IMG/VR virus record: IMGVR_UViG_3300044643_002008
Location: 13,201-77,200 of that record
Direction: 5' to 3' (one strand)
DNA from: a virus
Length of the DNA stretch: 64,000 nucleotides
Under the pieces are notes generated by a model. The model made no database searches and was not told where the DNA came from. It was given only the letters and a program-made list of their open reading frames with translations. The position numbers were made by a program, and so were the translations under genes. The first letter of the stretch is position 1; every line of letters begins with the position of its first letter. Shown here piece after piece: positions 37,564 through 64,000 of the stretch.

Positions 37564-38689
37564 TTATTTCCTCTGCCTCTATGGCTTCTTGAACGGTATA
37601 CGCTCTGGTTCCTGGCCCAATTGGGTTTACTGAAGTTGCGCTTATCTCATTCATAAGCAAATTTCTAATAAGCCAATGAAGTGGATATGCCCTAGGGTCT
37701 TTGGCGTGTTTTTTCCTAAACTCAGACGCATAGGACATAGCTCGCTTTTTTAATCCGGGCGTTAAAACGTTTTCTTCAATGCATCGTTTAACCCCATCCC
37801 ATCCGTCTGAGGAGTATCGCATGATGACTGCCTCAATATTGAATTCTGGCCACCAGCGGCGCTGGGCGTCTATCTGAGGGAAACAGGTTACAAGCCGGTC
37901 GTAGAATTCTGGCTCAGTAACAACTACGTCTCCTATTCGGCGTATGGCGACAGAGTGAAGAGGAATACCAACCCGGGCATTGCTTCCAGTTAACGCGGCA
38001 TAGTCGTAGTACTCGCAGTAGTTTGCACCATGCTCTTCTGCCACATACTTGAAGACGTCGTCCGCTGTCCAGTCATAAATAACCTTTGCAAAACGCAGGG
38101 GTATGTTTTTACGCATTTTATATGGCGTAACAATGTAATTCTCGTGCAGCTTTTGAACGCAAGAGCGATATCTAATCATTGACTCGTTTGCCCTGACGCC
38201 AGTCAAAAAGGCAACTTTGCCCTTCTTTCCCTGCATGGTGTAGTAGTCGATTGACTCTGGAATTTTCTTGTCAGGGTCGAGACCAAAGTGCTCTGCGGTT
38301 ATTGCCCACTCAGGTATGTCTCTAACAAGCCTGCCTTGCTTCTTTCGCATTCCAGACCACAGTAGACAGTACTCTCGCCTGCCAAGAACCCATACCTCTT
38401 GGCCAACAGGAAGGCAGTACCACTCCATGTCAACCCAGTCATAGTTTCTAACTTCTTCCATGAACTTAACAACAGAAGGGCTGACCATTTCTTCGTCGCG
38501 GAAAATTACCTTCACAGGCCCAAGTCCGCGTTCTTCGTGTATTTCTTTGGCAAGATACAAAACTGCAGTGCTGTCTTTTCCACCGGAAAACTGAACACAC
38601 ACTGTGTCAAAAGTGTCGTAAACGTGCCGAACTCGTTCCCTGGCAGCGTCTACGCACGAGATGTCCAAATAAAGTTTTTGTCTAGACAT
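37550..38689 (-). CDS. PAPS-reductase-family PP-loop protein (IbrA-like)
   Basis: FSGGKDS, FRDEE, WYCLP, GVRANESMIR, IYDWTADDV. Confidence 0.88.
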   Translation of the reverse strand: MSRQKLYLDISCVDAARERVRHVYDTFDTVCVQFSGGKDSTAVLYLAKEIHEERGLGPVKVIFRDEEMVSPSVVKFMEEVRNYDWVDMEWYCLPVGQEVWVLGRREYCLLWSGMRKKQGRLVRDIPEWAITAEHFGLDPDKKIPESIDYYTMQGKKGKVAFLTGVRANESMIRYRSCVQKLHENYIVTPYKMRKNIPLRFAKVIYDWTADDVFKYVAEEHGANYCEYYDYAALTGSNARVGIPLHSVAIRRIGDVVVTEPEFYDRLVTCFPQIDAQRRWWPEFNIEAVIMRYSSDGWDGVKRCIEENVLTPGLKKRAMSYASEFRKKHAKDPRAYPLHWLIRNLLMNEISATSVNPIGPGTRAYTVQEAIEAEEINANL

Positions 38690-45508: not shown

Positions 45509-47743
45509 ATGGCCTGGAATATTGGTAATAAAGACCTCGGCGGATTCGAGAAAAAGGCTGGAAACATTGGTCCAGGCGCTCCCGTCGCATATAACCCATC
45601 AATGGCTGGTCGGCCATACAAAGACTCGTGGGATATTGAGCGCGCTTACAGAGAAGGCGTTCAGAAGGTCACATGGGTAAACCGCTGTATTGACGCGATT
45701 GCTGGCAACCAGGCGAGATTGCCAATGATTATCAGAAAAGACAATTCACCAGATGGTGAAATCGTTCGCAAGAAGAACCCGATTCTTGACATTCTTAACT
45801 CGACGGCAAACCAGGGAGAAAACTCCTTTATCTTTAGATATAGGCTTTCTTCACAGCTTTTGATGTCTAGCCGTGGTGCCTTTATCGAGAAAGTTCGTGG
45901 CAGAAATGGAGAGGTAGTAGCTCTTCACCTTCTCCCACCACAACACACCTCTCCAATACCAGACCCTAAGCGCTTTGTTTCCGGATTTGAAGTGGACATG
46001 CGAAATGGTACGAAAATAATCCTTCGTCCTGAAGATGTAATTTGGGTTCGTCGTCCGCACCCCTTGGACCCATATCTGTCAATGACGCCAATGGAAGCGG
46101 CTGGTATCGCAATTGAAATTGAAAACCTTGCAAAAATTTATAACCGTAACTTCCTTCTGAATGACGGTCGCCCAGGCGGCTTGATTGTTGTTCGTGGAGA
46201 AATTGACGACGACGACAAGGACGAGCTTAGAAGTAGATTCCGCGGCAACCTTTCAAAGACAGGTGCCGTAACGGTTCTTTCCTCTGACGAGGGTGTTGAC
46301 TTCGTTGATACCGGAGCCTCACCACGAGATGCCGCGTATATACAGATGCGTCAAATCACTAAGGAAGAAATTCTCTCCGCCTTCGGTGTACCTGAATCGG
46401 TTATCGGAAACGCTGCAGGACGCACATTCTCAAATGCCGGCGAAGAAATCCGTGTTTTCTGGGTCGAGACAATGATGCCCCACTTGATGCAGATGGCCAG
46501 AGCTCTCGACGCTCTTGACCCCGAGTACTACATCGACTTTGATACCTCGCAGGTTCCCGTTCTTGTTCTGTACAAGCAGGAGCGTGAACGCTATTTGCTC
46601 GACGAGCTTCAGGCTGGATTAATTAGCCCAAATGAATACCGTGCCGGAACAGGCAAAAAAGAAATTGATTCAGACTTGATGAACGCAATGCTCGCCAACC
46701 CGAACTTGACGCCAATTGGCTACACGGACAAACCGTTTGACTCAACACAGCAACAGCAACTTGACATGATGGGTGCTCAGCAGGGTGCTCCTGGAGCTCC
46801 TCAGATGCCAGGAATGCCGCCAATGCCCGGTGCGGTGCTTGGGCAGGAATCAGGAATGATTGGGGCACCAGAGGCTCCCCAAGAGGGAATGACGGCAGCT
46901 TTAGCTCAAGAGGCACAAGTAATCCCAACAGAGGTTGGACCGGTTCAAGGATTGTCAGAGAACTTAAACGAACTTCGCTTTAAGTCCATGAACGCGGCAA
47001 TCGATGAGTGGGACACAAAAGCTGAGCAGGATTCCGATAGATGGGTCGAAATTATGGATAGAAGCCTTGAGCGCCTATTCGACCGACAGAACCGCGTAGT
47101 CATCGAGAAGGCAAATGGAGCCAAGGCCAAGAAAAGCCTTGAGTCGGGCAAACTTGAGGGAAGCGCAATATTTGATACCGACGTTTGGAATAAGCAGTTG
47201 CAGGAAGACTTGCGACCTGTAATCAAAGCGATTATCGAAGATTCCGCTCGTCTTGCTTCTCAAAAAACCGGAATGCCTGTAGAAATAGACGAAGAAGAGC
47301 TTAATGAATACATTGAGCAACAGCTAAATAGGGCCCAGCAGGTCAACAATACGACAAAAGAAGAAATTCTTGCCGCGATATTGATAGCCCAGTCATTGCA
47401 AGATGATGAAGATAGGTCGGGAATGCTTAAGGCTGCTCTTGCGGCAATATTCCTTAATCTCCTTACGAAACGCCGTCGTCTTATAGCTGAGCACGAGTCG
47501 CAATCTGCCTACAATGCCGGAACATACTTTGCTAGCCGTCTTCTTGGCTCCCCAACAAAGACATGGGTTACCAGAAAAGATGCAAAAGTTAGAGCTGAGC
47601 ACCTGTTAATGCAGGGCAAGACAGTTGATGTTGGTCAGTCTTTTGATGTCGATGGCGTCAAGATGCGATTCCCTGGAGACCCTTCTGCTCCAGTGCATTT
47701 AACAATCAACTGTAGATGCCGCCTCAAGTTTGACACACTTTAA
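45509..47743 (+). CDS. HK97-family portal protein fused to a MuF (Mu gpF-like) domain
   Basis: CIDAIA...FLLNDGRPGG...EILSAFGVP...SPNEYR portal motifs; C-terminal KTW...VRAEH...FPGDP...INCRC. Confidence 0.92.
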   Translation: MAWNIGNKDLGGFEKKAGNIGPGAPVAYNPSMAGRPYKDSWDIERAYREGVQKVTWVNRCIDAIAGNQARLPMIIRKDNSPDGEIVRKKNPILDILNSTANQGENSFIFRYRLSSQLLMSSRGAFIEKVRGRNGEVVALHLLPPQHTSPIPDPKRFVSGFEVDMRNGTKIILRPEDVIWVRRPHPLDPYLSMTPMEAAGIAIEIENLAKIYNRNFLLNDGRPGGLIVVRGEIDDDDKDELRSRFRGNLSKTGAVTVLSSDEGVDFVDTGASPRDAAYIQMRQITKEEILSAFGVPESVIGNAAGRTFSNAGEEIRVFWVETMMPHLMQMARALDALDPEYYIDFDTSQVPVLVLYKQERERYLLDELQAGLISPNEYRAGTGKKEIDSDLMNAMLANPNLTPIGYTDKPFDSTQQQQLDMMGAQQGAPGAPQMPGMPPMPGAVLGQESGMIGAPEAPQEGMTAALAQEAQVIPTEVGPVQGLSENLNELRFKSMNAAIDEWDTKAEQDSDRWVEIMDRSLERLFDRQNRVVIEKANGAKAKKSLESGKLEGSAIFDTDVWNKQLQEDLRPVIKAIIEDSARLASQKTGMPVEIDEEELNEYIEQQLNRAQQVNNTTKEEILAAILIAQSLQDDEDRSGMLKAALAAIFLNLLTKRRRLIAEHESQSAYNAGTYFASRLLGSPTKTWVTRKDAKVRAEHLLMQGKTVDVGQSFDVDGVKMRFPGDPSAPVHLTINCRCRLKFDTL

Positions 47744-47826: not shown

Positions 47827-50556
47827 ATGCCATCATCTTTTACAGATATGAATACGACAGAAGAAAAAGCTACAGAATACAAGGCCATTCCTGGTCAGTT
47901 CAATGTTGATGAAGCTCTTGGCATTGTTGAATGTTTCGTCGCCGGCATAGGAAACAAGGACTCCGTTGGAGATGTTTGCCTTCCTGGTGCTTTCTCTGGA
48001 AGCCTTAAGCGTCGTAAGCCACGTGTTGTATGGGGACACAACTGGAATGAGCCAATTGGCAAAGTTCTAGACATCTACGAAGTTGGTCCCAACGACCCAC
48101 GTCTACCCATGAAGATGAGACGTGCCGGTATAGGTGGTCTGTATGCTCGCGTTCAGTTCAACCTAAAATCCGAAAGAGGCAAGGAAGCATTTAATAGCGT
48201 TGTTTTCTTTGGAGAAGAGCAAGAGTGGTCAATTGGCTACAAGACTTTGGACGCTGTTTTTGACCCATCGCAACAGGCAAACATGCTTAAAGAAGTCGAG
48301 CTATACGAAGTATCTCCTGTTTTGCACGGTGCAAACCAGCTAACAGGAACGATATCCATCAAAGCTGACCAGCCATTAAAAGACCCAAAGGGTGGATTAA
48401 CCGCCGCTGGACGTAGGCACTTTAAGAATACTGAAGGCGCAGACCTCAAGCCCGGAGTTAAGGGCCCAGCAGACACCCCAGAGAAGATGCGCCGCAAAGG
48501 CTCATTCCTCACTCGCTTTTACACAAACCCTTCAGGTCCTCTTGTTGATGAAGATGGAGAGCCAACACGCCTAGCGCTTGCTGCAGTTGCATGGGGAGAG
48601 CCAGCACCAAAGAACCGTCAGGACGCGGCAGAACTCGCTGCAAAGGGCAGAAGAATGCTCGACAGATACGGTAAGTCTAAGACTAAGGCCGACCCAGCGC
48701 AGGGTGGCCAAAAGTGCCCAACTGCAACAAAAGAAGTTTCCGTCAATATAAAAAATAGACAGAAGGCAATCGATAGCGCCGGATATGGCCCACTTAACCC
48801 AAAGGAAGCAAACTCAGAGTTTTGGGACAAAAAGGCATCTCGATGGGATGTAACTGCCCAAGAAGCAAAAAAGCAGAAGTGCGGAAATTGCGCTGTGTTT
48901 ATAAAGACCTCAGCTATGGAAAAGTGCATTCAGAGCGGCCTTGCTGCCGGTGGAGAGCTTGGCGACAGCGCTTGGGACGTTATTGCTGCAGCAGACCTTG
49001 GTTACTGCGAAGCATTTGACTTCAAGTGTGCCGCGTCTCGTACTTGCGATGCATGGGTTGTTGGTGGACCGATTACTGACGAATCTTCGAACAGTCAAGA
49101 AGTTGCAGAAAAGAGTGCAATATATAAGTCGCCCGAGTACATGTCAAACACTTCAGTTGGACGTATGGCCGAACTCGCAAAAGCCTTGTCGGAAAGATTT
49201 AGCTCGCCAGTAAAAATCAGAACAGCAGACAGAGACATGGTTGTTTTCGACATCAGCAATGGTGGACAGTCAACAACAATGAGAATCACCTACTACTTTG
49301 ATGGCGAAGAATTTATGTTCGGTGAGCCACATCAGGTTCGTGCTGAAACCGTATATCTCCCGGTAAATACTCCTTCCGGAATAATGCCAGGACACGCTTT
49401 TCCAGATATGGAGGATGATGATGATTCAGGGGAATACGCTCATGGGGCTCGTGAAATGATTAGAAACGTATCTCAAAAGCCTCACGACGATTGTGGGTGT
49501 GGATGCTCTGGTGCGGGAACGTGTGGAGTTCCTGAGCCTTCTATTAGCTGGAGCAAGTTCAAGGAAAGAACCCCTGGGGCCCACCTTTTCGTAAGAGCAC
49601 TAGGTCAGGAAAAGTCAGACGCGCTAGAGCTAGTAAAGACAGTGTGCGATTATCACGGAATTGAAATGAAAGAACTGGAAGACGGAGTAGCTGTTCCGTT
49701 TATCGACTCTTTGTCTGATGACGGATATGAAGCCGTAATGACAGTCGCATCGAATATGTCAGAAGGATTTGACGCAAAGAGTGTTGGTGGGAAACTCCGC
49801 CGAGTAGGAAGAATGGCAAACAACTTTGACCGTTTCGACCCTAACGCTATTGACGCCGATGGTGACTCACAAGTTCAAGAAGGAACACGCTTCCAGCGCC
49901 CTGCGGCTCCTAGAAACATGCCAAAGGTTAAGCCAATCCAGGTTCCCCGCAGAGAAGATGTGCCACTAAAGCCTTCTGTTCCATCAACCCCAACACCAAC
50001 CCCCACAAGAGTTCCCGAAAAGCCAAGAGTTCCACAAAGAGCTGGGCGCTTGTCTGGCTCTATGAGCCTTGGTGATAATAGTCTTAGCTGGAGAAGCAGA
50101 GATTTCAAGAATCCAGGACCATCTAAGCTCGGTGAGGAAATGGACAAAATCATTGAAACCGTAGACGGTGATTCTGCATGGGACGCATGGGATGAGCTCG
50201 ATAACAAGCTCGGAGGAATGCTTGATGATATGTCACTTGGCGACCTAGAAGACGCTTTGGATGAAATGAAAGCAAAATTCCGCCAATGGGGAATTGGCAT
50301 GCAGAACGAATACAACGACGCACTAGCTGACAGGTTGATGTGGGGAGACGAAGAAGGAGTTATTAAACACCTGATGCGTTGGCAAGACATGACAAAACGG
50401 CAAGCACAAAAAGAAGCTCCGAGACTAATTGATGAATATGAAGCTGCAAGCCAAAAAGAACAAGCTTTTGAACAGGTTATCGATGCTTTGAAGTCGCGAA
50501 TTAAAGACATAGAAAAAGCAGAGGACGCATTAAGCGAGGATGATTTTTATGATTAG
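47827..50556 (+). CDS. HK97-family prohead protease with long multi-domain C-terminal extension
   Basis: DSVGD...GAF...WGHNW...PIG, WSIGY, LYEVSPVLHGAN in the first ~180 aa; ~730-aa extension. Confidence 0.92.
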   Translation: MPSSFTDMNTTEEKATEYKAIPGQFNVDEALGIVECFVAGIGNKDSVGDVCLPGAFSGSLKRRKPRVVWGHNWNEPIGKVLDIYEVGPNDPRLPMKMRRAGIGGLYARVQFNLKSERGKEAFNSVVFFGEEQEWSIGYKTLDAVFDPSQQANMLKEVELYEVSPVLHGANQLTGTISIKADQPLKDPKGGLTAAGRRHFKNTEGADLKPGVKGPADTPEKMRRKGSFLTRFYTNPSGPLVDEDGEPTRLALAAVAWGEPAPKNRQDAAELAAKGRRMLDRYGKSKTKADPAQGGQKCPTATKEVSVNIKNRQKAIDSAGYGPLNPKEANSEFWDKKASRWDVTAQEAKKQKCGNCAVFIKTSAMEKCIQSGLAAGGELGDSAWDVIAAADLGYCEAFDFKCAASRTCDAWVVGGPITDESSNSQEVAEKSAIYKSPEYMSNTSVGRMAELAKALSERFSSPVKIRTADRDMVVFDISNGGQSTTMRITYYFDGEEFMFGEPHQVRAETVYLPVNTPSGIMPGHAFPDMEDDDDSGEYAHGAREMIRNVSQKPHDDCGCGCSGAGTCGVPEPSISWSKFKERTPGAHLFVRALGQEKSDALELVKTVCDYHGIEMKELEDGVAVPFIDSLSDDGYEAVMTVASNMSEGFDAKSVGGKLRRVGRMANNFDRFDPNAIDADGDSQVQEGTRFQRPAAPRNMPKVKPIQVPRREDVPLKPSVPSTPTPTPTRVPEKPRVPQRAGRLSGSMSLGDNSLSWRSRDFKNPGPSKLGEEMDKIIETVDGDSAWDAWDELDNKLGGMLDDMSLGDLEDALDEMKAKFRQWGIGMQNEYNDALADRLMWGDEEGVIKHLMRWQDMTKRQAQKEAPRLIDEYEAASQKEQAFEQVIDALKSRIKDIEKAEDALSEDDFYD

Positions 50557-52951: not shown

Positions 52952-55900
52952 GTGCCGATGGCTGAACCGCGTAAAAAACACAGTGATATAGAGCGAAAGC
53001 TTATAAATACTGTCTTTTCTGACGACTTCGAACTAAGAGGATTTGGTGCCGGACATCTCTACAAGGCAGAAAAAAATACTTCTGAAGACGACAAAGAAGT
53101 AAAAAAGAAAATCTCCAAACCAGCAAAAACGCCTTTCAAGCAATGGGCAAGAGACTGGCAAGAAGGCGACGCTTTGCCCTTCATGCCGCCCGGTAAAATT
53201 CTTCAGCTTGACTCGCTTGGAACAAAGCCAAATAAAAAACCATTATTTCGGGATGCGGACCCTACCCGCAAAAGAAGCCTTAATGAAATAGGCCTAATGT
53301 CAAGCAAGTCGGTTCTTGGCAGAACTATTAACAACATGCCAGGAGCAATGCAAATCATTGCGATGGTGGCAAAGCGTAGAGGCATCCCAGTAGATGACCA
53401 GGGCAAGCTCAGATGTCCTGCAGGAACACCGGCAGCAAACCAATTTACAGACCTTCAGATGTCGAACTGTATGGTTCCATCTGCCGCAACAGCCGCTAGA
53501 GAAGCAGCAGGTGCCGTCAGAGGCGCTGTAGGCGGTTCAAGCCCTGCGGGTAGTGCGATTGTTGGCTCTGTAAGTATTGGCGGCAGAGTGGTAGACGCTG
53601 ATGGAGACAGCGTTTACGGAGCCCTAGAAGCTGCTCAAAGATTTTTGATTTTTAAAAAAAGACGCGCAGCAAGAGAAAAACTTGTATCTCAGCTTTTTGG
53701 AAACTTTAGGTCTAATGCTGGTGCAAAAAAGGCACTTCTTCGAGCTTTCCCCAAGATGGATAAAGAGAGTTTAGACAAGTTTTTAAATGACTTTAATGGT
53801 CTTAGCGGGCAAGACCTGGCTGACTACCTCGACATGCGTGAAGCGTTTATTGGTTCCCTTCTCTATGAAGCTTCAAAAAATAGAGAAGCTGCAGAAACTG
53901 CTGAAATAGTTTGGGAGTTTGGCGAAGAACTTTTATCTGAAGGAGAGGGTTTTCAGGTTCAAATAGAGACTGGAGAGGACTCTCAGCCATTTGTTCTTTT
54001 TAGATACAGCCCAATAGGTCTAGTCAACGTAAAAAACAACATACAAGAAAACCATTTAGCAAACGGCACAAGCAACGACCCAGACAACCCACAAAATGCA
54101 TCTGACTTTGGTTCATATGTTGGCACTCACGAATTTTTTCACTTAGCCGATTTTCATGAAACATTTAAAAAGCTTGGTCTCGACATAAACGACACAAATT
54201 ATAACTCTGCAATTGAAAAAATTGACAACATAATAAACGGAGATGTTAATGGGGCTTTAAGCCAGGGTCTAATAACTCCAGAACAACACGCTCTATGGAA
54301 CTTGCATGAAAAATTAAAGTCCGACATTGCGTCTGGCGTAAGCAACGAAGATGCACTAGATAGTTTTTACGAAGAAATAGCTAAGTTTTTTACAGAAGGA
54401 ACAGGCCTGTATACGCCTGAAGTTGCTGCAATTATGAAAGATGTTGTTGGCTCAAAATACGGACATCAAAGCAACATAGAAAACAAGGCAGAGCTCGGTG
54501 CTGCTGCCTCTTATTTTCCAGAACTACTTCAGCAAAGAATAGACGAAATAAACGAAGACAGAATAATAAACGGCATACCCCCCATACCTGACCTTGACGA
54601 ATTAATGAAGGACATGTTTGGCGGTGATGTAATAACACCCCCATCGCAAAATACGCAGATACAGAGACCAGGGGTGGCAAGGAGAACCGTTCGAGCTGCC
54701 CGGGCACTCAAGAATCCTGATGGTCAAGATTCAGACACCGAAGATGTATCAGACATAGACGATGCTGCAGTACTTGACTATTTAATAGACACTGCAGGAA
54801 ATATAAAAAAGTCAAATTTAAGACGACAGAAAAACATAAGAAAAATGTCGCTCGACCTTTTGTTTGATGCATACACAGAAGATGAAATAAAAAACATACT
54901 TGCATCTATCCCTGTTAGTCAGCGTGGCAACAATAGATACATCACGAGTCTTTTGAAGGTACCAGAACGCTTTTCAGGCTCCAGAACACCTTCGGGTTCT
55001 AGAAGTCCCCGAGAGCTTGATTGGCTCGACCTTTTAGCTAGGGCCGACAACGAGGGCTGGATTGATTTTACAACCATCTCCGACATGTACACGCTCCGTG
55101 GTGGCGGAAGCCCAATGGACACTGCAAAGGCAAACGTTCGGGCGCTAAGACGTTCGGTGCAACAAAGACGCGAAGACCGCGAGCAAAGAGCTACCACAAA
55201 AGCTCAAACGAGAAAACTTACGGGCAGCATGGGTAACCCACGCCTTTCTAAAGTTTCTGGCTCAATGGCTTGGGTCAGAAGAAACGGTGTTAGATGGTGG
55301 GAAGACGAACCAAAAAACAATCCAAAGCCAGACAGCCGTGTTTCTGCGAGCATAAAACCACTAAAAGACGGAAAAATTTCAATTAATTGGGGTGACGAAT
55401 CTTGGGAATTTGATTCTTCTAAAGACGTAGATAAACAGTGGAAAGAACAAGTTTTAAAAGACTGGGCAAAGTTTGATGGCAACTTCTCAATGCGTTACGT
55501 CTCTTCAATGCTTATGGGAATGGATGTTCCAGATTCGAGCGGATATAACGAAGAAAAAGACGATGGAAGCAATTCAATTCACGACGCTCTTGTTTCTGGA
55601 AAAATAAAAGGACTTGACGACAAGCAGAAAGCTGAAGTCAAAAAAGCCGTTGAACAGGCTGTAATAGCTCTTCTTTCTATAGAAAAAGACGACAACGTAA
55701 AGGACTATGACGCCTACCGAGGCCTTAGTGGCGTCAATGAGAATGCATCAATCCTGAAAGCTAAAGTCGGTGACGAAATAGAGATGCCTTTGTCTGCATT
55801 TACCCCATCAAAAAACTGGGCGTCTGAAATGGCCGAGTTTAACGACGAAGGTGAGGGTGTACTTATCCATCTTCTTCCAGGGGCGCATTCGACAGCAGCT

Positions 55901-57808
55901 GATGAAAAAGTTGATAAAGACAGCGATGAATACTGGGCTAATGCTTTTGAAGTTGTTTCATCAGGAAGATTTGAGGTTGTAAAAGTTGACTCTCCAGACA
56001 ATGAACCGACGGTCGTAACGCTTCGTCAAACAGCAGTATTTGACCCAAAGACATCACAGTTTAAGGCTCCCTCCAGAAAGCTTTCCGGAAGCATGAGTTC
56101 TGGAGAAAAAAAGGAAGCTGTTCAACGAACTAATGCAAGCATGGAAGAGAGGGCAAAAGAAATTGGGCTTGACCTCAAAGAAAAACCTTCACAGGAAAGA
56201 GTCGACAAAGAAATAGATAGACAGCTTGCAAATCTTGAATACTACAAAGAAGAAGCTGCCAAAGAAATAAAACTCCCAGATAGAACAATAGAATTTATAA
56301 AAGCCCAAGTTGAAGCAGGGCAGTTCTTAACTAGCTCAGAAAGCGATTCGTACGGCAGGGTTAACGATGCTCTTCAAAGCATATTGATGGGCGCTGCACA
56401 GGACCCATCGCTTGGTCTAACTAGAGATGGTGGCGTTCCCATGAATCTCCGGCTAGAGATAACAAAACAGATGCACTTAGCGCGAGGCGACTCTGAAGCA
56501 GCTAAAAAGGTTGATGATTTTAGAGAGTATCTAAGAACAGCATCACCGCAGCAGCTCAAAGAAGACCTCGCAAATGCAGGCTCATCATATGGTCGTTCAA
56601 TAGACAGACATGTGGTTGTTCAAACAAGAAGTATGAAACCTTTTGCCAAAGGCGCCCACTCAATCCTGACACATCATGACCTAGAAGAAAAAGAAAAACT
56701 CGGCATTCAGTCAATGAACTGGATGGGTGATTCGATAACTAGTTCCGCCAGAATGAAAACAGAAGCAAATCTTCTTAATATCCCAATGGAAGATACTGCT
56801 GATATCAGGGCATTGCGTCCAAGTTCTGGCTACATTGTTCCAAGCAAGCTAACAAAAGCAAGAGTCGACCGCTTTAAAAAAATATACGGCGACGACGTGA
56901 AGGTAATGCATGAATTACCAGTTGGAGCACCCGTATCGGCAGTGGCAGGAAAAGTTGTAAAGAACTATGGCGGCTCGTCTTTTATATTAAGACCAGAAGT
57001 TGCGGAACGGACAAGAGTGTACAACGGAGACACGGTCGACGTTATGGGGAATGAGCCCCCTCCTATAAATCTTGCCGATATGGACCAGGAAGGAATATTC
57101 CTATCTAGCGCCCTGGGTCTTCTTTATGACTATAAATCAGGAGAAACAGAGGTAACCCCAGCCAGTGCTTTTGAATCAACAGTAGATGATGGGAGCGGAA
57201 GAAGAGCATATAAAGAAGCTCTTGTTCTGGGAAGGTTTAAGCCAGAAGAAATTGAAGCAATAGCTGCACCTGTTGCTGACTTTAGAAAAGGTGTTGGCGA
57301 AGGCTCTGTGCGTGGGATGAATTTAGACTTTGATGCAAATTTAAGTCTCATCATTGACTTTGCTCAATCTCGGGACGAAATGCTTGAACAGTATGGGATA
57401 GAGCTAATCCCGTTGTTGAACTTCGGTCAACTAAGTACAGAAAATGTTGAACTATTCAATCCGTCAATGTCTAAAGGTTTTTTTGAACAACTAACTGAAA
57501 AACGAGAAGATAAACCAGACATCAATGACTACGTAACAAGCCCAGAAACAACGCCATATGAAGTGTGGTTAAAACTACAACTCGACACCCTAAAGGGAGG
57601 CAATAGCCCGTTTATGGAGTACAGAGGTGAAGACGGAAAAGAAGATGAACTTGAGAGAGTTTCCTCTAGAAGAAATAAGCAAAAAGAAAACGCTACTAGC
57701 GGACAAAAAGAACAACAAGAAGAAGAGATTGCAAGAGAAAAAGTTCGCACAGAAATTGCTGAGGCCGGAAGACTTGCTCAAGAGCAAGCTCAGGAAACCG
57801 AAGACTAA
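52952..57808 (+). CDS. 1618-aa polyvalent protein: zincin peptidase, ART-like domain and DUF3626-like domain
   Basis: HEFFH...SKY...NIENKAE; YRG...SAFT...FEVV; RPSSGY...YG...LRPEVAERT...GDT...YKEALVLG. Confidence 0.72.
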   Translation: MPMAEPRKKHSDIERKLINTVFSDDFELRGFGAGHLYKAEKNTSEDDKEVKKKISKPAKTPFKQWARDWQEGDALPFMPPGKILQLDSLGTKPNKKPLFRDADPTRKRSLNEIGLMSSKSVLGRTINNMPGAMQIIAMVAKRRGIPVDDQGKLRCPAGTPAANQFTDLQMSNCMVPSAATAAREAAGAVRGAVGGSSPAGSAIVGSVSIGGRVVDADGDSVYGALEAAQRFLIFKKRRAAREKLVSQLFGNFRSNAGAKKALLRAFPKMDKESLDKFLNDFNGLSGQDLADYLDMREAFIGSLLYEASKNREAAETAEIVWEFGEELLSEGEGFQVQIETGEDSQPFVLFRYSPIGLVNVKNNIQENHLANGTSNDPDNPQNASDFGSYVGTHEFFHLADFHETFKKLGLDINDTNYNSAIEKIDNIINGDVNGALSQGLITPEQHALWNLHEKLKSDIASGVSNEDALDSFYEEIAKFFTEGTGLYTPEVAAIMKDVVGSKYGHQSNIENKAELGAAASYFPELLQQRIDEINEDRIINGIPPIPDLDELMKDMFGGDVITPPSQNTQIQRPGVARRTVRAARALKNPDGQDSDTEDVSDIDDAAVLDYLIDTAGNIKKSNLRRQKNIRKMSLDLLFDAYTEDEIKNILASIPVSQRGNNRYITSLLKVPERFSGSRTPSGSRSPRELDWLDLLARADNEGWIDFTTISDMYTLRGGGSPMDTAKANVRALRRSVQQRREDREQRATTKAQTRKLTGSMGNPRLSKVSGSMAWVRRNGVRWWEDEPKNNPKPDSRVSASIKPLKDGKISINWGDESWEFDSSKDVDKQWKEQVLKDWAKFDGNFSMRYVSSMLMGMDVPDSSGYNEEKDDGSNSIHDALVSGKIKGLDDKQKAEVKKAVEQAVIALLSIEKDDNVKDYDAYRGLSGVNENASILKAKVGDEIEMPLSAFTPSKNWASEMAEFNDEGEGVLIHLLPGAHSTAADEKVDKDSDEYWANAFEVVSSGRFEVVKVDSPDNEPTVVTLRQTAVFDPKTSQFKAPSRKLSGSMSSGEKKEAVQRTNASMEERAKEIGLDLKEKPSQERVDKEIDRQLANLEYYKEEAAKEIKLPDRTIEFIKAQVEAGQFLTSSESDSYGRVNDALQSILMGAAQDPSLGLTRDGGVPMNLRLEITKQMHLARGDSEAAKKVDDFREYLRTASPQQLKEDLANAGSSYGRSIDRHVVVQTRSMKPFAKGAHSILTHHDLEEKEKLGIQSMNWMGDSITSSARMKTEANLLNIPMEDTADIRALRPSSGYIVPSKLTKARVDRFKKIYGDDVKVMHELPVGAPVSAVAGKVVKNYGGSSFILRPEVAERTRVYNGDTVDVMGNEPPPINLADMDQEGIFLSSALGLLYDYKSGETEVTPASAFESTVDDGSGRRAYKEALVLGRFKPEEIEAIAAPVADFRKGVGEGSVRGMNLDFDANLSLIIDFAQSRDEMLEQYGIELIPLLNFGQLSTENVELFNPSMSKGFFEQLTEKREDKPDINDYVTSPETTPYEVWLKLQLDTLKGGNSPFMEYRGEDGKEDELERVSSRRNKQKENATSGQKEQQEEEIAREKVRTEIAEAGRLAQEQAQETED

Positions 57809-57846
57809 ATGTTAGTCTATATAAAAAGAAGATTAGACAGTTTAAA

Positions 57847-59898
57847 ATGAAGTACAGATTTGGTTCAAATATTTTAAAACAGCACAAAACTGAGACAAAA
57901 GCCTTGATGCAACAAGCTCGTTTTGACCCAAACGCAGAAGACGGCGATGGTGACGGATTCGTTCAAGAAGGAACAAGATTTAGAAGACCGGCTCCAAGGA
58001 GGGCTGTTTCTCGAGTAACCGGAAAAATAAAAGGAAGAATCTCTGGAAGCACTGGTAAATATGGAATTGCATCCAACAAAAATGTAAAAACATTTAATGG
58101 CATGGACCATCAGCATGTCCTTGAAGCTGTTGGTTCAATTATTGATTCTGTCGAAAAAAAATACGGAAAGATAACTACGGTAAAGGAAGCTGTAGATGCG
58201 TTAAAAACAGTGTTCGGAAAAGTTCAGATATTTCATATGGGCCCCAACACCGGCAGGGATGGGAAGTCGTCCCTAACCGACAGCCTCACTCAGTCTGAAT
58301 CGGCCGTCATCGCAGCGCTGCTGTTTGCCTTTAATGGCATGCCAGAGCTCAAGAAAAGAAGGCTCGTTCTTTCTCACGAGATAAGCGACGGAGCATTTTC
58401 AGGGAACGGTTCTACCGGAGTTCTTCGTAAGACAAACGCAAAAGGCGGACCTGATTTTCCAGAGTTTGGAGTTAGGGTAAACATTCCGTTTAACGAAAAT
58501 CTTGCATCAGAAATACTTGACGAAAACAATACGACCAACATAGACGGTGTTTCAAACCAGCTAACAAAAGCACTTCTTGTGCACGCTCAGTCACTCCCTC
58601 CCGGTGGAGAAAAAGACGCATATGAAAGAGCCGCGTTTGTTTCTAGCTTTATGGGTGTGACTGTGCACGAAGCAATACACGCTTTGGATTTGCCGAGAAA
58701 CGGAGACAGGCTTAATGAAGAATTGCTTAAGAGAAACCCAAACTTAACAACAGAAGAGCAAATGGAGCGAGCAAGACTTCTTGAGTCAAACAGTGAAGAA
58801 TTTTTTATAAAAAATTATTTGATTTCAAAATCTCTTCAAAACATTCAAGCCTCAGAAGCCGGGGTCGCTATTTTGATGTCACAATCCTACGAAGAAGATT
58901 CTGAAGAAGATTTTTTATCTACCGCTGCACTTCAAATATCTCAACTTGAATCAGTAAAACAAGAACTTAATCAACAGATTAAAGAAATACAAGATGCGGC
59001 CAATGACCCTAACGCTTCCTTTTTGGACATATTTACGGCAAGTGCAGTAATTCCAGATATTCAAGAAGCTATTAGCAGAATAGACCTAAGAATAAACAGA
59101 GTTGACAAAATACAAAAAGACTTGACAGAAAAAATAGCCAAAGGCAGACAACAGGATAGCTTGATAGCAAAACTGCGCGACATTGTGTATAGAGACGGTC
59201 TTAACTATCTTTTTGATATAGCTCCGCCAGGTCACCCTGGCCACAATAAAGACGTCGACATGACAGTAGACGCTTTTGGAAACGAAATTCCAACTCTTGA
59301 TATAAATGGAAAAAAAACCAAAGTAAACAATGCGACTTGGGAATTTGCAAAATCAATGCTTTTCGCTTTTAAAAAATCTCCAGATTTCCGCGTTGAAGCT
59401 GAACGTGCCGGATTCTCTTTAGCTGATGTAGAAGACGACCTGGACAATATTTACATATCAAAAGATGCAAATGGTAAAGATTTTTTTGACTTCAATAAAA
59501 TAAAAAGCAACGTGGGTCAAGACACTCTTGACAGCATGATTGAATCTATAGCTCAGCTAAATACCGTAAGCAAAATGTCTTCACACTGGCCCTCAGACAT
59601 TGAGGACAGAGAAAAATGGGAAATAGTTGACTGGATGAAAATGATATCCCAGTATGGCTCTTTGTCTCATTTTAGATACAGAAACGGCACAGACAAGCCT
59701 TCAAAAGATAATATAATATCTGTAGAAGTGACCGCAGAACTTATTACATCTCTCATATTTGGAGCAGGTGCTGCCCGAGTTCCAATGTCTCCACAGGTAC
59801 GGTCGGGTGTAATAAAGATGCTTAATTGGGTATATGCTGGCGACAGTTGGAAATCCATGCTTCCAGAAATTTCATTGAAGGCTTTAGGTATAAAATGA
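57847..59898 (+). CDS. zincin-like metallopeptidase protein with N-terminal DxDGD tag
   Basis: HEAIH at 58666-58680; C-terminal ISQY...EVTAE. Confidence 0.65.
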   Translation: MKYRFGSNILKQHKTETKALMQQARFDPNAEDGDGDGFVQEGTRFRRPAPRRAVSRVTGKIKGRISGSTGKYGIASNKNVKTFNGMDHQHVLEAVGSIIDSVEKKYGKITTVKEAVDALKTVFGKVQIFHMGPNTGRDGKSSLTDSLTQSESAVIAALLFAFNGMPELKKRRLVLSHEISDGAFSGNGSTGVLRKTNAKGGPDFPEFGVRVNIPFNENLASEILDENNTTNIDGVSNQLTKALLVHAQSLPPGGEKDAYERAAFVSSFMGVTVHEAIHALDLPRNGDRLNEELLKRNPNLTTEEQMERARLLESNSEEFFIKNYLISKSLQNIQASEAGVAILMSQSYEEDSEEDFLSTAALQISQLESVKQELNQQIKEIQDAANDPNASFLDIFTASAVIPDIQEAISRIDLRINRVDKIQKDLTEKIAKGRQQDSLIAKLRDIVYRDGLNYLFDIAPPGHPGHNKDVDMTVDAFGNEIPTLDINGKKTKVNNATWEFAKSMLFAFKKSPDFRVEAERAGFSLADVEDDLDNIYISKDANGKDFFDFNKIKSNVGQDTLDSMIESIAQLNTVSKMSSHWPSDIEDREKWEIVDWMKMISQYGSLSHFRYRNGTDKPSKDNIISVEVTAELITSLIFGAGAARVPMSPQVRSGVIKMLNWVYAGDSWKSMLPEISLKALGIK

Positions 59899-60209
59899 GT
59901 GAAAACAACAAATTAGATAATGACGATAAAGTTTTCAGTTTTTCTTTCCAGAAAAAAGCCAATCCCGAAAAAGCCGGCGAAGAACTGGTAAAATCTTCTA
60001 TAGAAATAGGAGATGATGGTTCATCGACCATTATTGACCGTTTTACTAGCATGCCATCCTCACTAGAAGAAGCAGTGAATAGCCCAAAGCTTTTTAAAAA
60101 CGTAAAAGAGTACATATCTGAACTTAGGCGTGTAGCTGGCCTTGATATGGAAATAGAAGAATTCTTAGAACTTAAAAAAGTGGAAAACAGGAAAAAAAAT
60201 GCCAAATGA
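59895..60209 (+). CDS. hypothetical protein
   Basis: ATGA overlap with the upstream stop; MSENNKL... Confidence 0.6.
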   Translation: MSENNKLDNDDKVFSFSFQKKANPEKAGEELVKSSIEIGDDGSSTIIDRFTSMPSSLEEAVNSPKLFKNVKEYISELRRVAGLDMEIEEFLELKKVENRKKNAK

Positions 60210-60843
60210 TGAATCAATAATCCCACGTGGGGCAAGAATTTCTGAAAAAGCGACTCCGATAGACGCAATTCCGCAAGAAAGAATTACCGGCGACCTCCTG
60301 AAAGGCAGAGGGCCACGAAGAGGGAATCTTGAAAGGCTGCTTCGCTACTGGCGTCCAATCATGAGAAAGCCCGGTGGATTCCGCAGATGCCGCGTCATTC
60401 TTGCCGACCATCCGGAGCTTTATCCGTTGAACAATATCTGCGCCTGGCTTCACCACGAGACAACTGGCCTGTGGCCAAACGAGGGATGCCACCACCCTGG
60501 AATGAAAAACTGTAGAAAAAAAATACGAGGCGTTGTTCGTGGCTCGGTGTGGAATGACAACGAATTCGACGACAGAATAAGAAAAATTACATCACGTGCT
60601 GGCGGGAAAAGCCTTAAGTATTCAGGGATTGATGGCGGAGAAGAGCCATTTAGTCCTGTAATAACTAACGAGGACATGGAACACGCTTTTAAAGTTCTTA
60701 GTGATTTTATAGAGATGGAACCAGATTGGGTTTCATATATTAACGACGAATCTAGCTGGGTACACCTTGGAGACGATGACGAAGACGAAGATGTCTACCA
60801 TCAGAGAGTCTCGGCACCTGGATGTACTTGCGGAAAGTGCTGA
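60199..60843 (+). CDS. head-region hypothetical protein
   Basis: GNLERLLRYW...PGGFRRC...CAWLHHETTGLWP resembles a module recalled from actinophage head regions. Confidence 0.65.
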   Translation: MPNDESIIPRGARISEKATPIDAIPQERITGDLLKGRGPRRGNLERLLRYWRPIMRKPGGFRRCRVILADHPELYPLNNICAWLHHETTGLWPNEGCHHPGMKNCRKKIRGVVRGSVWNDNEFDDRIRKITSRAGGKSLKYSGIDGGEEPFSPVITNEDMEHAFKVLSDFIEMEPDWVSYINDESSWVHLGDDDEDEDVYHQRVSAPGCTCGKC

Positions 60844-62890
60844 AGTGGAAAACGCGCAGGAACCTGAGCAAAGAAAGGCATACCGAGTAGTTCGGTACAA
60901 GTCTGCAAGCCTGGCTATTTCTCGCGACCCTATTTTCTATGGACCGTTAGTTGGAACAAACAAGTCAGTTTTGGTCGAATTTAAAGCCAAAGCACAAAGA
61001 CAGGGTGGAAGAAACAGAATAGATTACAAAGCAGGAATAACTGGCTCAGGTAGTCGTTTTCTTCAAGGAGTACAGGGCGTTGTGTCTACTGTTATTCCCG
61101 GAAACCCATCAGCGCTTCGTAGTCCTGTCCGTTCGAGACTTTACGCAGCAGCCACCCCCGGTGGCCCTCCTGGGTTGTCCGGAATTTCTCCGGCGTCAAG
61201 AGATAGAGGCTACAGATGCCCAGAGGGATATCAGTACGGTGGAAGATTTACTGACAGCAGGTTCTCGACTTGTGGACAAAAGCTATTTGAAATAGCGGGT
61301 CGCATAGGAGCTTCTATTGCGCAGATTGCGGAAGCGACACAGAGAGCAGTTGCCGGTCAGACAGTTTCAGGAAGAAACGTAAACTTTGGCGATGCGCCTG
61401 GAGAAGTGATTACCTCTCGCGCTGCCCAAATACCTAGAGTTTCTAATTTTGATTCTAAAAGATATAACGACTCATCTGAAAAAATTGTTTCTGAGATGGT
61501 TTCTTTTGCTGGTCCTGCTACCCGAATGGTAAGACGGGATGGTTTCTCCCTGACGCCGGTGGTTAGTGCCGCGGTCTTGCGTACAGTGCCAGATAACAGA
61601 GACATGGAAAGCGCAAACTACATCGTTTACGCCGACAAACCATCGTCAATCGGAACAAGCGACGAAATAGGTCTTCTTTCCAATACTGGGGTGAGAAAAC
61701 TTACCTATGTTCTTCCTGGTGGTTCTACTATTTCCCTGGAAAAAGCAAGAACACTAACCGTTGGTGAAAGAAGAAAACTCGGCAGAACCATAAGAACGCT
61801 TGAGTCCATAAAGACAGACTCGGACCCCGCAGCAAAGCTAAAGGGTTTGGCCTCCGAAATGGGAAGTGGAATAGCTTATACCGAGTCATTTAAGGTCGAG
61901 AATGCAAACGACCTAGTTGACGCCGTGATTCCAGGAACATCAAATGTCAAGCAAGTCCGACGTTGGTATTACGAAGCGTTTTTGCGTTCCGGTAAGGGCA
62001 AAATGCCCGACCGGGCTGAGGCTTCTTCGCAGTCAACAAATGCAAAAATAATTGGCAAAAAAATTGAAAACCTTCAGAACGCCATAAAGCACTTAAACAG
62101 CAACGGAAATGTCTCGGACATTAGTCCGGCAATTGTTGCGGAAGCAATCAAGAGAAGCCGGATGTATAAAAAGCGAATGCTTAAGAATGGCCTTGTTGCC
62201 TTCGACCGGGCTGATGGTCAAACATTCATAGAGATACCAGCTTCGCAAAACTTTGAGCATATTGGTGCTGCTGTAGCAGCCGATATTCAGTCATACCTTG
62301 GATTACCAACCCCTGACGTTGTTTTCACTGGCTCGGGTACAAGAAGGCCTTATCTTCTCCAGGAGTCGGTAGACGTCCTAAAGCGTGCAAAAGTCAATAG
62401 AGAGCTTAGCTCTGATAAAAATAACAGCGAAGACATGCTTCGCATAGCGGTTAGTGACTTCATTTCTGACACTCGCGACAGGGATATTTCGACGATAACT
62501 GCACTAGAAACGGGCGGCACAGACAGAGCAATATCTTCAATAAATAGAAACTCCGCACTTTCTGGTCTTGGAAGAACTGCCGCGCAGCTTAGAAGACAAC
62601 TGCAAGCAAACTCGTTCTATAGCTCAGAATACCTAAACATGATGAAGTCAAATTTTGCTAAGCGTTCAGAAGCGCAGAGACGTCTTGCTATCAAGCTTTT
62701 TGATGCCATGATTGTTCGCTTGAGAGAGTATGATATTAGTGAAATGAGTTCACGTTTATCTTTAGACGGAGAATTCACGCAGTCAGAAAAAAGCCACATA
62801 AAACTAATCGAGTCGCTAATTGAGTCGAGAATAGAAATGCTTACAAAGACTCGCAAAACATTCCTAGACATAATTGGACTTGAATCATGA
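60767..62890 (+). CDS. head-region protein with RCP tag and degenerate HipA/PI-kinase-like C-terminal domain
   Basis: RCPEGYQYGGRFT; LGLPTPDV...DFISDTRDRD; start uncertain. Confidence 0.6.
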   Translation: METMTKTKMSTIRESRHLDVLAESAEVENAQEPEQRKAYRVVRYKSASLAISRDPIFYGPLVGTNKSVLVEFKAKAQRQGGRNRIDYKAGITGSGSRFLQGVQGVVSTVIPGNPSALRSPVRSRLYAAATPGGPPGLSGISPASRDRGYRCPEGYQYGGRFTDSRFSTCGQKLFEIAGRIGASIAQIAEATQRAVAGQTVSGRNVNFGDAPGEVITSRAAQIPRVSNFDSKRYNDSSEKIVSEMVSFAGPATRMVRRDGFSLTPVVSAAVLRTVPDNRDMESANYIVYADKPSSIGTSDEIGLLSNTGVRKLTYVLPGGSTISLEKARTLTVGERRKLGRTIRTLESIKTDSDPAAKLKGLASEMGSGIAYTESFKVENANDLVDAVIPGTSNVKQVRRWYYEAFLRSGKGKMPDRAEASSQSTNAKIIGKKIENLQNAIKHLNSNGNVSDISPAIVAEAIKRSRMYKKRMLKNGLVAFDRADGQTFIEIPASQNFEHIGAAVAADIQSYLGLPTPDVVFTGSGTRRPYLLQESVDVLKRAKVNRELSSDKNNSEDMLRIAVSDFISDTRDRDISTITALETGGTDRAISSINRNSALSGLGRTAAQLRRQLQANSFYSSEYLNMMKSNFAKRSEAQRRLAIKLFDAMIVRLREYDISEMSSRLSLDGEFTQSEKSHIKLIESLIESRIEMLTKTRKTFLDIIGLES

Positions 62891-64000
62891 GCAAGATTGC
62901 ATACGTTAAAGACGTAACAGATGATTCTATTTTTGCTGTAGTTGTCGAGAAAAACAACACTTTTTTTAGCTTCGGAACTGGTCCAACTGCTTCGGCCTGG
63001 GCAAAACAATCGAACGCAAAAAAGCAGAAATTTCAGGACATTAAAGACAACCTTGATGTCATGCTCTACATTTCTCAGCCTAAAAACGCCTCGTCTGCAG
63101 AAATTGACTCCCTCTCATCTATTCTCGATATTGAGGCAGCTAAGAAAATTATCTCGATAATCGGTGGTGAAGAAAAAGAAGAAGAGATAAAAGTAAAATC
63201 CGAGCAGCCCTATTCGGACGATGCAACACAACGTCACGAACCAGAGGTCGAGGAAGATTACCTTTCTTTGTCTGACCTGCCCATGAGGTATGTCGACGTT
63301 CAGTTCAAAAGAAATGCCATTAACTACAAGACAAAGGCATTTACTCTAGATAGACAAATCTCGTCCCTGAGACTTGAAGCAAAGGGAGCAAGAGCTGTTT
63401 TTGACCCAAGCGCACGTGGCGGTGTTGGAGCATGGAGATGCCCACAGGACACTCCGTATGGAGGCCAGTTCACAAACAAGTTTGGCCGTGGTTGCACCTG
63501 GGGTGTGTCTAGAAGAATAGGTCGAGCGTTTACCGCTTTTGCCGGGAACGACCTTGGCAAAATTAGAAAGATTGGCGAAACCTTAGAAGACTTTGGAGAT
63601 TCTCGTCTTTCTACAGCGGCCGACCGTAGTGGCAGAAGACTTGACAGAAGAGCAAGAGCAGCGTCTCGTCCACCGGCGCGAGAAAGAGTTGCTGAAAGAC
63701 TGGCAACAACTTTAGAAAATGCTGCAGGTGGCGTACGTTCACGCTCGGCAGACAGAACACAGCGTCGTGCTAATAGAAGAACTGGGACCACTCCGGCACC
63801 TAAAACGCCAAAACAGTCTTCCACCCCTGTTGAAGAGTTTCTCCAAGACATTAAAAAAAGAAACTCTAAGCTGTCCTTGGAAGATGCATCTTACATTATT
63901 GACACATCGAACCCAGATTTATGGGGCGTAATCAATAGGAACGATACGCCACCAGGCGGTGACTGGAAAGACATAGTAGAGCTCTTTACTCGCGATAGTA
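62887..64000 (+). CDS. large head-region protein with RCP tag, truncated at window end
   Basis: Not in the ORF track. Manual translation from ATG 62887 (ATGA overlap) stays open to 64000: MSKIAYVKD...FDPSARGGVGAWRCPQDTPYGGQFTNKFGRGC... Confidence 0.8.
   Translation, partial: MSKIAYVKDVTDDSIFAVVVEKNNTFFSFGTGPTASAWAKQSNAKKQKFQDIKDNLDVMLYISQPKNASSAEIDSLSSILDIEAAKKIISIIGGEEKEEEIKVKSEQPYSDDATQRHEPEVEEDYLSLSDLPMRYVDVQFKRNAINYKTKAFTLDRQISSLRLEAKGARAVFDPSARGGVGAWRCPQDTPYGGQFTNKFGRGCTWGVSRRIGRAFTAFAGNDLGKIRKIGETLEDFGDSRLSTAADRSGRRLDRRARAASRPPARERVAERLATTLENAAGGVRSRSADRTQRRANRRTGTTPAPKTPKQSSTPVEEFLQDIKKRNSKLSLEDASYIIDTSNPDLWGVINRNDTPPGGDWKDIVELFTRDS

Follow-up and report, generated by a model that had tools for sequence, protein, structure and literature searches.

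A two-cysteine loop as a probable label for proteins carried inside the capsids of uncultured HK97-type phages

Phages whose DNA is injected together with enzymes must have some means of loading these enzymes, and to our knowledge few loading signals have been found (T4, P1, HK97 protease, encapsulins), all of them in cultured systems. The capsid targeting sequence (CTS) of phage T4 is about 10 residues long, sits at the extreme N-terminus and lacks cysteines; it binds the scaffolding core, and the gp21 protease cuts it off at L/I-x-E. In HK97, the gp4 protease removes the delta domain of gp5 after Lys103, and we know of no substrates of this protease other than the capsid protein and the protease itself. 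The T4 CTS is common to otherwise diverse host-directed proteins, internal proteins and Alt, that are loaded into the prohead (PMC3012670). A short N-terminal signal, the first 30 residues, brings the 250 kDa anti-defence protein DarB of phage P1 into the capsid and also loads a reporter; loading needs the helpers DarA, Hdf, DdrA/B and Ulx (PMC9024508). Polyvalent and MuF-fused phage effectors are giant proteins with several enzyme parts; their genes lie next to those for portal and head, and packaging and injection are predicted for them. The paper describing them has 0 occurrences of 'cysteine', no mention of disulfides and no cysteine motif (Iyer et al. 2017, PMC5512222).

The window analysed here is a 64,000-nucleotide stretch of a 77.2-kb virus contig (positions 13,201 to 77,200 of IMG/VR record IMGVR_UViG_3300044643_002008). 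Its six-frame translation contains exactly three matches to R-C-P-x8-F-T-x6-C, in three different proteins (Table 1), and neither the window nor the whole contig holds a fourth strict match in any of its six frames. A chance origin is excluded by the expectation per window, which is 0.0017 from composition and 0.003 from 300 shuffles. The first-pass annotation had described these peptides as a fixed-spacing tag; they translate as it gave them, all on the plus strand, and the strict-pattern matches bear out the exact C-x17-C spacing in all three proteins. They begin at residues 154, 150 and 184, within the claimed range of about 150-200 residues from the ORF start and away from the extreme N-terminus of the precursor that a T4-type signal occupies. 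Like the T4 CTS, the loop is a short conserved peptide on diverse proteins in a phage with a prohead protease. In contrast to the CTS, it is bracketed by cysteines, lies 150-250 residues from the N-terminus or deep in polyproteins, and follows a presumed Lys cut site, so that it is probably retained; the protease here is of the HK97-type S78 family. It has no sequence similarity to the DarB signal. The impression that the carriers show no similarity elsewhere was nearly right: BLASTP detects only motif-anchored stretches of 40-116 residues (E 4e-5, 0.065 and 0.009), and the three proteins are not full-length paralogs. The sequence following the motif is rich in Ala, Gly and Arg, which could inflate BLAST similarity. 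A suggested resemblance to RxPxGxxxGGQF peptides of phage head proteins found no support in Pfam, PHROGs or NCBIfam or in tblastn of 50,697 deposited phage genomes, and the motif is not described in the literature or in these family libraries.

Table 1. Head-module genes, carrier proteins, candidate protease sites and loops in the window (a slash marks the predicted cut).
Feature	Position	Strand	Remarks
Portal protein fused to MuF-like domain	45509..47743	+	PF04860 1.2e-53; phrog_2662 1.6e-103
S78 prohead protease (HK97-type) fused to DUF6321 and long Cys-rich extension	47827..50556	+	PF04586 1.1e-10; PF19846 1.5e-28
P0004, polyvalent-type giant protein, 1618 aa	52952..57808	+	
Candidate protease site SSK/SVLG (K119)	53300..53326	+	35 residues before type A loop; predicted cut
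Two-cysteine loop T1, type A	53411..53470	+	residues 154-173 of P0004
P0005, kinase-like, 707 aa	60767..62890	+	
Two candidate Lys sites VEFK/A (K73), IDYK/AG (K88)	60974..61039	+	62-77 residues before type B loop; predicted cuts
Two-cysteine loop T1, type B	61214..61273	+	residues 150-169 of P0005
P0006, 5' part of giant protein ended by contig end	62887..64000	+	full 1519 aa in near-identical contig L002
Candidate Lys sites INYK/TK/AF (148, 150), LEAK/GARA (166)	63319..63396	+	18-36 residues before type C loop; predicted cuts
Two-cysteine loop T1, type C	63436..63495	+	residues 184-203 of giant protein P0006

None of the three carrier proteins matches Pfam, PHROGs or NCBIfam, searches for Pfam LPD or polyvalent-associated domains in them were negative, and most of each giant protein is unannotated. 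P0004 contains an HExxH motif (HEFFH, residues 393-397) and, at about residues 790-1040, an ADP-ribosyltransferase-like part that we treat as a lead (Atlas score 0.95, PF03496 clusters) and that parallels T4 Alt; a PDB sequence search with P0004 gave no match. Orthologs of P0004 carry other enzymes, such as RNase_T in L005 (1e-9), and a neighbouring protein of 1471 aa has a NUDIX domain (2.4e-17), while carrier C-termini vary between ART-like, RNase_T and kinase-like. The N-terminal 220 or so residues of P0005 are conserved, yet predicted to be disordered. Its residues 220-707 are modelled at pLDDT >85 (AF2, 53-sequence alignment) with a HipA/CtkA/PI3K-like bilobal kinase-like fold; Foldseek against the PDB returns CtkA (3akl_A, E 2.7e-4, prob 1.00, TM to target 0.50), and PI3K and HipA are also among the matches. 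That P0005 could itself be a capsid protein is ruled out by this fold together with a real HK97 capsid gene downstream. Residues 1 to about 170 of P0006 correspond to a domain found as a separate gene of about 240 aa in most relatives, and in this third family the loop sits exactly at the fusion point of the relatives' stand-alone small gene and the giant protein.

The carriers are embedded in an HK97-type head module, with a PF04860 portal, a PF04586 protease and a PF05065 capsid protein bearing an N-terminal delta domain. The portal's MuF-like domain (PF04233 4e-6) scores 28 bits, just under Pfam's 29.6-bit cut-off, and the protease reaches 47.9 bits against TIGR01543, under the curated 59-bit cut-off. 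The loop-protein block is flanked by terminase, portal-MuF, S78 protease and HK97 capsid gene, the last lying past the contig end in the source phage (L084). In five complete relatives, all 12 significant loop matches fall on the strand of the S78 prohead protease and HK97-type capsid genes and lie between the two, which answers the concern that the motif might be scattered without head-gene association. The capsid protein has a delta domain of about 100 residues ending E-A-K/S-L-G. As in HK97, an S78-family protease and a delta-domain capsid protein are present, and the cargo headers carry look-alike sites; unlike in HK97, the presumed cutting here extends to those headers. Furthermore, giant proteins in a portal, terminase and head-gene neighbourhood, with a MuF-like domain on the portal, recall the polyvalent systems, whose catalogue does not contain the header module seen here (Iyer et al. 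2017). The carrier lineage comprises HK97-type, probably actinobacterial, myophages.

The loop is kept in three orthologous protein families across 79 related viral loci or contigs, which were fetched by homology to P0005 and contain the kinase-like gene by construction. In 53 related loci the type A loop reads G-h-x-V-D-x-x-G-K-F-RCPPGTPAANQFTD..GSNC; the 11 residues C151-F161 of type B are invariant in 53 homologs with 33-75% overall identity; and type C is conserved in the seven closest loci, with a one-residue insertion in L006. A library of 1.84 billion proteins holds 519 protein clusters that match the motif (E<=1e-3; lengths 144-4629 aa). The loop consensus is R-C-P-x-G-[TYF]-x-x-[GA]-[GN]-x-F-T-[DN]-x3-[ST]-[TN]-C. 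Conservation is 98-100% at R, C, P, G5, [GA]9, [GN]10, [DN]14 and C20 and 95% at F12 and T13, and the C-x17-C spacing is kept in 181 of 182 instances. The median position of the loop in 145 database proteins is residue ~199, some lying at 420-700. Two or three loops occur in 36 of these 145 top proteins; P0011 has one of each type, every one preceded by a Lys site, and loops recur at the unit boundaries of polyproteins, like unit headers. No true match was obtained by tblastn with P0005 and the motif segments against 50,697 deposited phage records, and no cultured phage with the motif was found among them; Mycobacterium phage rows on the opposite strand (E 6-10) were rejected. Bacterial and archaeal species genomes yield one type B pattern match, on a 6.4-kb contig binned as Bacteroidia, which gives no evidence of a prophage.

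All three loops are preceded at 18-80 residues by candidate Lys sites, as the claim of a nearby K/S, K/A or K/G site had it. Among the relatives, such sites lie upstream of the loop in 96%, 94% and 80% of instances, against backgrounds of 5%, 15% and 23%, and each loop type holds its own distance range to a Lys site. K73 of P0005 shows at least 90% conservation. With the form E-x-K-[SA]-L-G, the type A site mirrors E-[AI]-K-S-[LI]-G, the junction in the capsid protein, and the type C sites sit where the N-terminal domain of the stand-alone type meets the giant remainder. No covariation of cargo Lys sites with the capsid junction residue was seen, because in two relatives the capsid protein has no Lys at the junction position of the alignment, although their cargo headers retain one; we count this against a loading and processing label.

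The motif cysteines are the only cysteines in the three window proteins (3,844 residues), namely 155 and 173 in P0004 and 151 and 169 in P0005, and the capsid protein has none. This exclusivity, together with invariance of the pair in 304 instances, supports the earlier suggestion that the pair closes the loop, although closure itself is something we infer. Apart from these two Cys, the header has no conserved Cys or His, unlike a zinc ribbon or knuckle with its four Cys/His metal ligands in two knuckles. The isolated 40-residue header gives a compact, moderately confident model with beta bridges (pLDDT 79), for which a structural search found no PDB match. A complex prediction of the P0005 header (residues 60-200, 52-row alignment) with the capsid protein of L084 (9-row alignment) scored 0.00 and is evidence neither way.

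Taken together, the two-cysteine loop probably marks proteins that travel inside the capsid. More specifically, we postulate, with about even confidence, that the motif is the core of an undescribed header module, a label, common to head-packaged proteins, for their loading and processing, closed by a disulfide or a metal. Of the capsid-targeting or docking signal proposed at first, the tight association with head genes stands; packaging, cleavage, loop closure and docking are what we infer, the targeting or docking role from genomic context. The module would begin with a Lys site that looks like the one used in capsid maturation, followed, after 20-80 spacer residues, by the 20-residue loop; it would be placed at the start of proteins, or of units inside giant polyproteins, encoded between the prohead protease and the capsid gene. 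Carrier proteins would be built into the prohead, where the S78 protease would cut at the Lys site and remove the variable leader, in the third protein separating the small N-terminal domain. With the predicted cut sites upstream, the loop would remain in what is now the N-terminal region of the mature cargo, with its two Cys closing it either by a bound metal or, once the virion is released, by a disulfide, and may act as a common handle holding the cargo to a conserved internal head component. Several points count against this proposal. Conditions in the reduced cytoplasm of bacteria, where assembly takes place, are unfavourable to disulfides; a standard zinc site needs more than a pair of cysteines; and the loop has pLDDT <50 in the full-length P0005 model (AF2). 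In addition, the invariant inner residues differ by loop type (PGTPAANQF, EGYQYGGRF, x-x-TP-x-GGQF), contrary to the expectation for a single, simple receptor site used by all.

These type-specific residues suit an intrinsic fold better than one receptor, and the compact header model agrees with the loop being a structural cap or ejection element instead of an address. It would then be a knuckle, locked by redox state or metal, that either stabilises the processed protein at its new N-terminus or leads it through portal and tail at infection, with loading set elsewhere, for example in the variable leaders or the Lys-site region. Retention downstream of the predicted cuts fits such a role, and a sole Cys pair in Cys-depleted proteins is expected of a deliberate lock in an oxygen-exposed particle. 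We nevertheless consider a cap unlikely, since three unrelated proteins would not need the same one unless they met a common partner or channel, and since their leaders share nothing able to serve as an address. The loop could also be an exosite that recruits the S78 enzyme to the nearby Lys site and has no part in holding cargo, which would explain the set distance ranges and the recurrence at polyprotein unit boundaries. This seems improbable to us, as the capsid protein is cut at a similar site yet has neither loop nor cysteine, and other head-module proteins use a different junction peptide without the loop. Docking to, or phosphorylation by, P0005 deserves very little credence: the modelled HipA/PI3K-like fold, a Thr (95%) and a Ser/Thr (91%) that are conserved in the loop's flexible region, and the kinase-like gene in 79 of 79 loci (themselves fetched by P0005 homology) would fit, but the conserved Thr is Ala in the natural variants L029, P0011, P0131 and P0143, and the invariant Cys, Pro and Gly pattern suggests a shape, not a phosphosite. 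A low-complexity coincidence or duplication remnant, for which the Ala/Gly/Arg-rich stretches could speak, is already refuted by the invariance of the motif across hundreds of diverged proteins, with similarity outside the header absent and three matches present where 0.002 would be expected.

The loop is found on hundreds of giant proteins, mostly without annotation, from lake phages that are abundant and uncultured, and offers a sequence handle for finding injected cargo, including ADP-ribosyltransferase-like and kinase-like proteins. Should it be a true loading tag, it would be a new and compact one, perhaps with a redox lock, usable to package foreign proteins into HK97-type shells, and the entry of polyvalent proteins into capsids would become directly testable.

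The same phages carry a second, cysteine-free tag, R-F-D-P-N-A-x-D-G-D-G-D-G-x-V-Q-E-G-T-x-F-E-R-P, followed by [LIV]-[ST]-G-S-M. Homology between the Cys loop and this FDP...DGDGDG...RP tag is not supported by hhalign (probability <5%); only a short A-x-x-F-D-P prefix is common to the second tag and type C (E 0.01). The two may be functionally equivalent: each of the 31 long forms in the family downstream of P0005 has one of the tags at the junction, and none has both. More tentatively, and with some doubt, the loop may represent a new type of portable capsid-loading handle, internal, retained, locked by its Cys pair and served by its own receptor in HK97-type proheads, with which the second tag would be interchangeable; the two tags would then supply a modular grammar by which polyprotein cargo is loaded and cut. 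Among the 31 long forms, seven have the loop and 24 the second tag (22 by pattern, 2 by eye), and the seven loop-bearing forms constitute one clade.

The strict pattern R-C-P-x8-F-T-x6-C, the Cys loop, occurs only three times in all frames of the window and of the whole 77.2-kb contig, of which the window forms the 3' 64 kb; the chance expectation per window is 0.0017 by composition and 0.003 in 300 shuffles. The translated peptides are identical to those written in the first-pass annotation, and their positions agree with its estimate of ~150-200 aa from the ORF start. The carriers are the giant protein P0004 (type A loop), the kinase-like protein P0005 (type B) and a second giant protein, P0006 (type C), which extends to 1519 aa on the near-identical IMG/VR contig of L002. 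Pairwise BLASTP finds only motif-anchored similarity of 40-116 residues (E 4e-5, 0.065 and 0.009), so the three carriers are non-paralogous, and outside the motif region nearly as dissimilar as first described. The motif is absent from the family libraries and the papers searched.

Features of the Cys-loop region, its related loci and the surrounding contig
Feature	Position	Strand	Remarks
WhiB-like gene	G000:C1:4574-4765		PF02467, 2.5e-15; same contig, outside the window
PAPS reductase-like auxiliary metabolic gene	37550-38689	-	phrog_2302, 2.3e-74
Portal + MuF-like domain fusion	45509-47743	+	first in + strand block
HK97-type S78 prohead protease + DUF6321 + long extension	47827-50556	+	next after portal
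Protease Cys cluster	48988-49079		protease residues ~388-418
Second tag + trailing peptide	49831-49905 and 50047-50064	+	C-terminal extension of protease
P0008	51030-52577		between protease and first giant protein
P0004	52952-57808	+	1618 aa, loop at residue 154
P0004 K-[LV]-[ST]-G-S-M peptide	55214-55267		residues 755-772
P0004 K-[LV]-[ST]-G-S-M peptide	56078-56095		residues 1043-1048
Second tag + trailing peptide	57919-57993 and 58036-58053		N-terminus of P0009
P0010	60199-60843		214 aa; phrog_6439 (function unknown), no assigned family
P0005	60767-62890	+	707 aa, loop at residue 150
P0006	62887-end	+	loop at residue 184; ORF truncated by contig end
P0006 conserved N-terminal domain	62887-63396		first ~170 residues
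Second tag	L002:17387-21799, residues 14-60		N-terminus of 1471-aa NUDIX protein
Second tag	L084 3-407	-	N-terminus of gene two genes after capsid gene

Scanning IMG/VR with P0005 retrieved 79 loci by homology to that protein. All 79 hold the type B loop, one of them with F-A for F-T, and C151-F161 is invariant across 53 homologs with an overall identity of 33-75%. At 53 loci the type A loop is carried by giant proteins (1450-2650 aa), which differ in what their C-terminal parts contain (e.g., RNase_T in L005). Type C occurs at the 7 closest loci. Among 1.84 billion proteins, a profile built on the 40-residue header matched 519 cluster representatives at E<=1e-3 (221 at E<=1e-10), with lengths of 144-4629 aa. 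The C-x17-C spacing is kept in 181/182 instances. The logo of 304 instances is richer than the pattern originally proposed: R98 C100 P100 x G99 [TYF] x x [GA]100 [GN]100 x F95 T95 [DN]100 x x x [ST]91 [TN]95 C100. The motif was not found in deposited phages. Among 185,579 species genomes, the type B pattern occurs in one contig only, L089 (JBDNIH010000222.1, 6.4 kb), which lies in a Bacteroidia MAG bin and is probably a mis-binned phage fragment.

A Lys site precedes each loop type, consistent with the K|S/A/G site first noticed. Type A shows E-x-K-[SAG..]-L-G ~37 residues before the loop (96% of instances vs 5% background), type B h-K-[AVSC] at about -80 and -60 (94% vs 15%), and type C Y-K-[AT]-K-A-F together with E-x-K-[GR]-A-R-A (80% vs 23%). 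The type A site resembles the end of the ~100-residue delta domain of the capsid protein, E-[AI]-K|S-[LI]-G, the classic HK97-type junction. Two or three loops, separated by ~100 or ~350 residues, are present in 36 of the 145 best database proteins; P0011 has a loop of each type, every loop with its own Lys site. The header therefore acts as a unit start marker within polyproteins. In three complete relatives (G007, G008 and G009, the records behind L038, L063 and L079), the protease is itself part of a giant polyprotein, its S78 domain lying within open frames of 2954-3988 aa.

The association with head genes supposed at first is borne out in five complete relatives (138-173 kb), where 12/12 significant matches to the profile fall on the coding strand between the genes for protease and capsid. 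The HK97-fold capsid gene (PF05065) is absent from the contig; it is located downstream of the giant genes in the record of L002 and eight relatives, and two genes downstream of the type B protein gene in more distant ones. Terminase large subunit and tail sheath, encoded on the opposite strand, identify a myophage. WhiB is known only from Actinobacteria and their phages, and the WhiB-like gene on the contig points to an actinobacterial host. P0008 combines long Met/Asp/Glu/Lys-rich low-complexity runs with two CxxC-type clusters and may be scaffold-like. The protease polyprotein contains 14 clustered Cys; one cluster has a 78% DNA match to a gene of Actinomycetia phage DSL-LC01 whose annotation reads high potential iron-sulfur protein, and Pfam did not call a HiPIP in the polyprotein.

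In most relatives, the N-terminal domain of P0006 is a separate gene of ~240 aa, which in loci L007-L079 (~11.9-12.7 kb) stands directly 3' of the kinase-like gene. It may act as a cognate partner to the kinase-like protein and, in P0006, is joined to the cargo protein that follows. Where the domain is fused to a giant protein in the P0006 family, the junction always carries one, and only one, of two tags: the Cys loop (7 forms) or a Cys-free second tag (22 by pattern, 2 by eye). Since all 7 forms with the loop belong to one clade, this exclusivity counts as a single event and supports no statistic. The second tag, R-F-D-P-N-A-x-D-x-D-G-D-x-x-V-Q-E-G-T-R-F-x-R-P, contains an EF-hand-like DxDxDG loop and is followed after 13-72 residues by [RK]-[LIV]-[ST]-G-S-[MT]. 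An hhalign comparison did not support homology of the two tags (probability below 5%).

The motif pair constitutes the sole cysteines in the 3,844 residues of P0004, P0005 and the full P0006 homolog. Across 250 motif proteins, 1.1 Cys per 1000 residues occur outside the motif, and 92 have no other Cys. A Cys pair kept in otherwise Cys-free, presumed virion proteins fits closure by a disulfide or a metal. Cysteine is lacking altogether from the capsid protein, from P0009 and from the 1471-aa neighbour; an intermolecular disulfide with the capsid protein is thereby excluded. P0010, whose gene immediately precedes the kinase-like gene in all related loci examined, is a candidate partner of the loop. 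It has 7 Cys and several His, with the core ...F-R-R-C-R...C-A-W-L-H-H-E-T-T-G-L-W-P-N-E-G-C-H-H...

In the full-length model of P0005, residues 1-220, including the loop, have pLDDT <50, and residues 220-707 are confident and match the kinases CtkA, HipA and PI3K. The isolated 40-residue header, modelled from a 56-row alignment that spans the three types, reaches pLDDT 79 with several beta bridges and has no match in the PDB; the model hints that the header might be a small autonomous knuckle. Residues 790-1040 of P0004 are similar to ADP-ribosyltransferase clusters (Atlas 0.95), which we treat as a lead. K-[LV]-[ST]-G-S-M peptides flank both ends of this part, where linkers at domain boundaries or cut sites would be expected.

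We give roughly even chances to the Cys loop being a common loading and processing label of head-packaged proteins, with packaging, cleavage, loop closure and docking all inferred. A mode of working similar to that of the T4 and P1 targeting signals is proposed, although the loop differs from these in position, chemistry and probable retention (PMC3012670, PMC9024508). The inner residues, invariant within each loop type but different between types, argue against one simple receptor site. Alternatively, the loop may be a retained structural or ejection cap, or an exosite for the protease. A kinase substrate motif, the third alternative, is weakened by natural Thr-to-Ala variants. Apart from the head module, the window encodes a PAPS reductase-like auxiliary metabolic gene.
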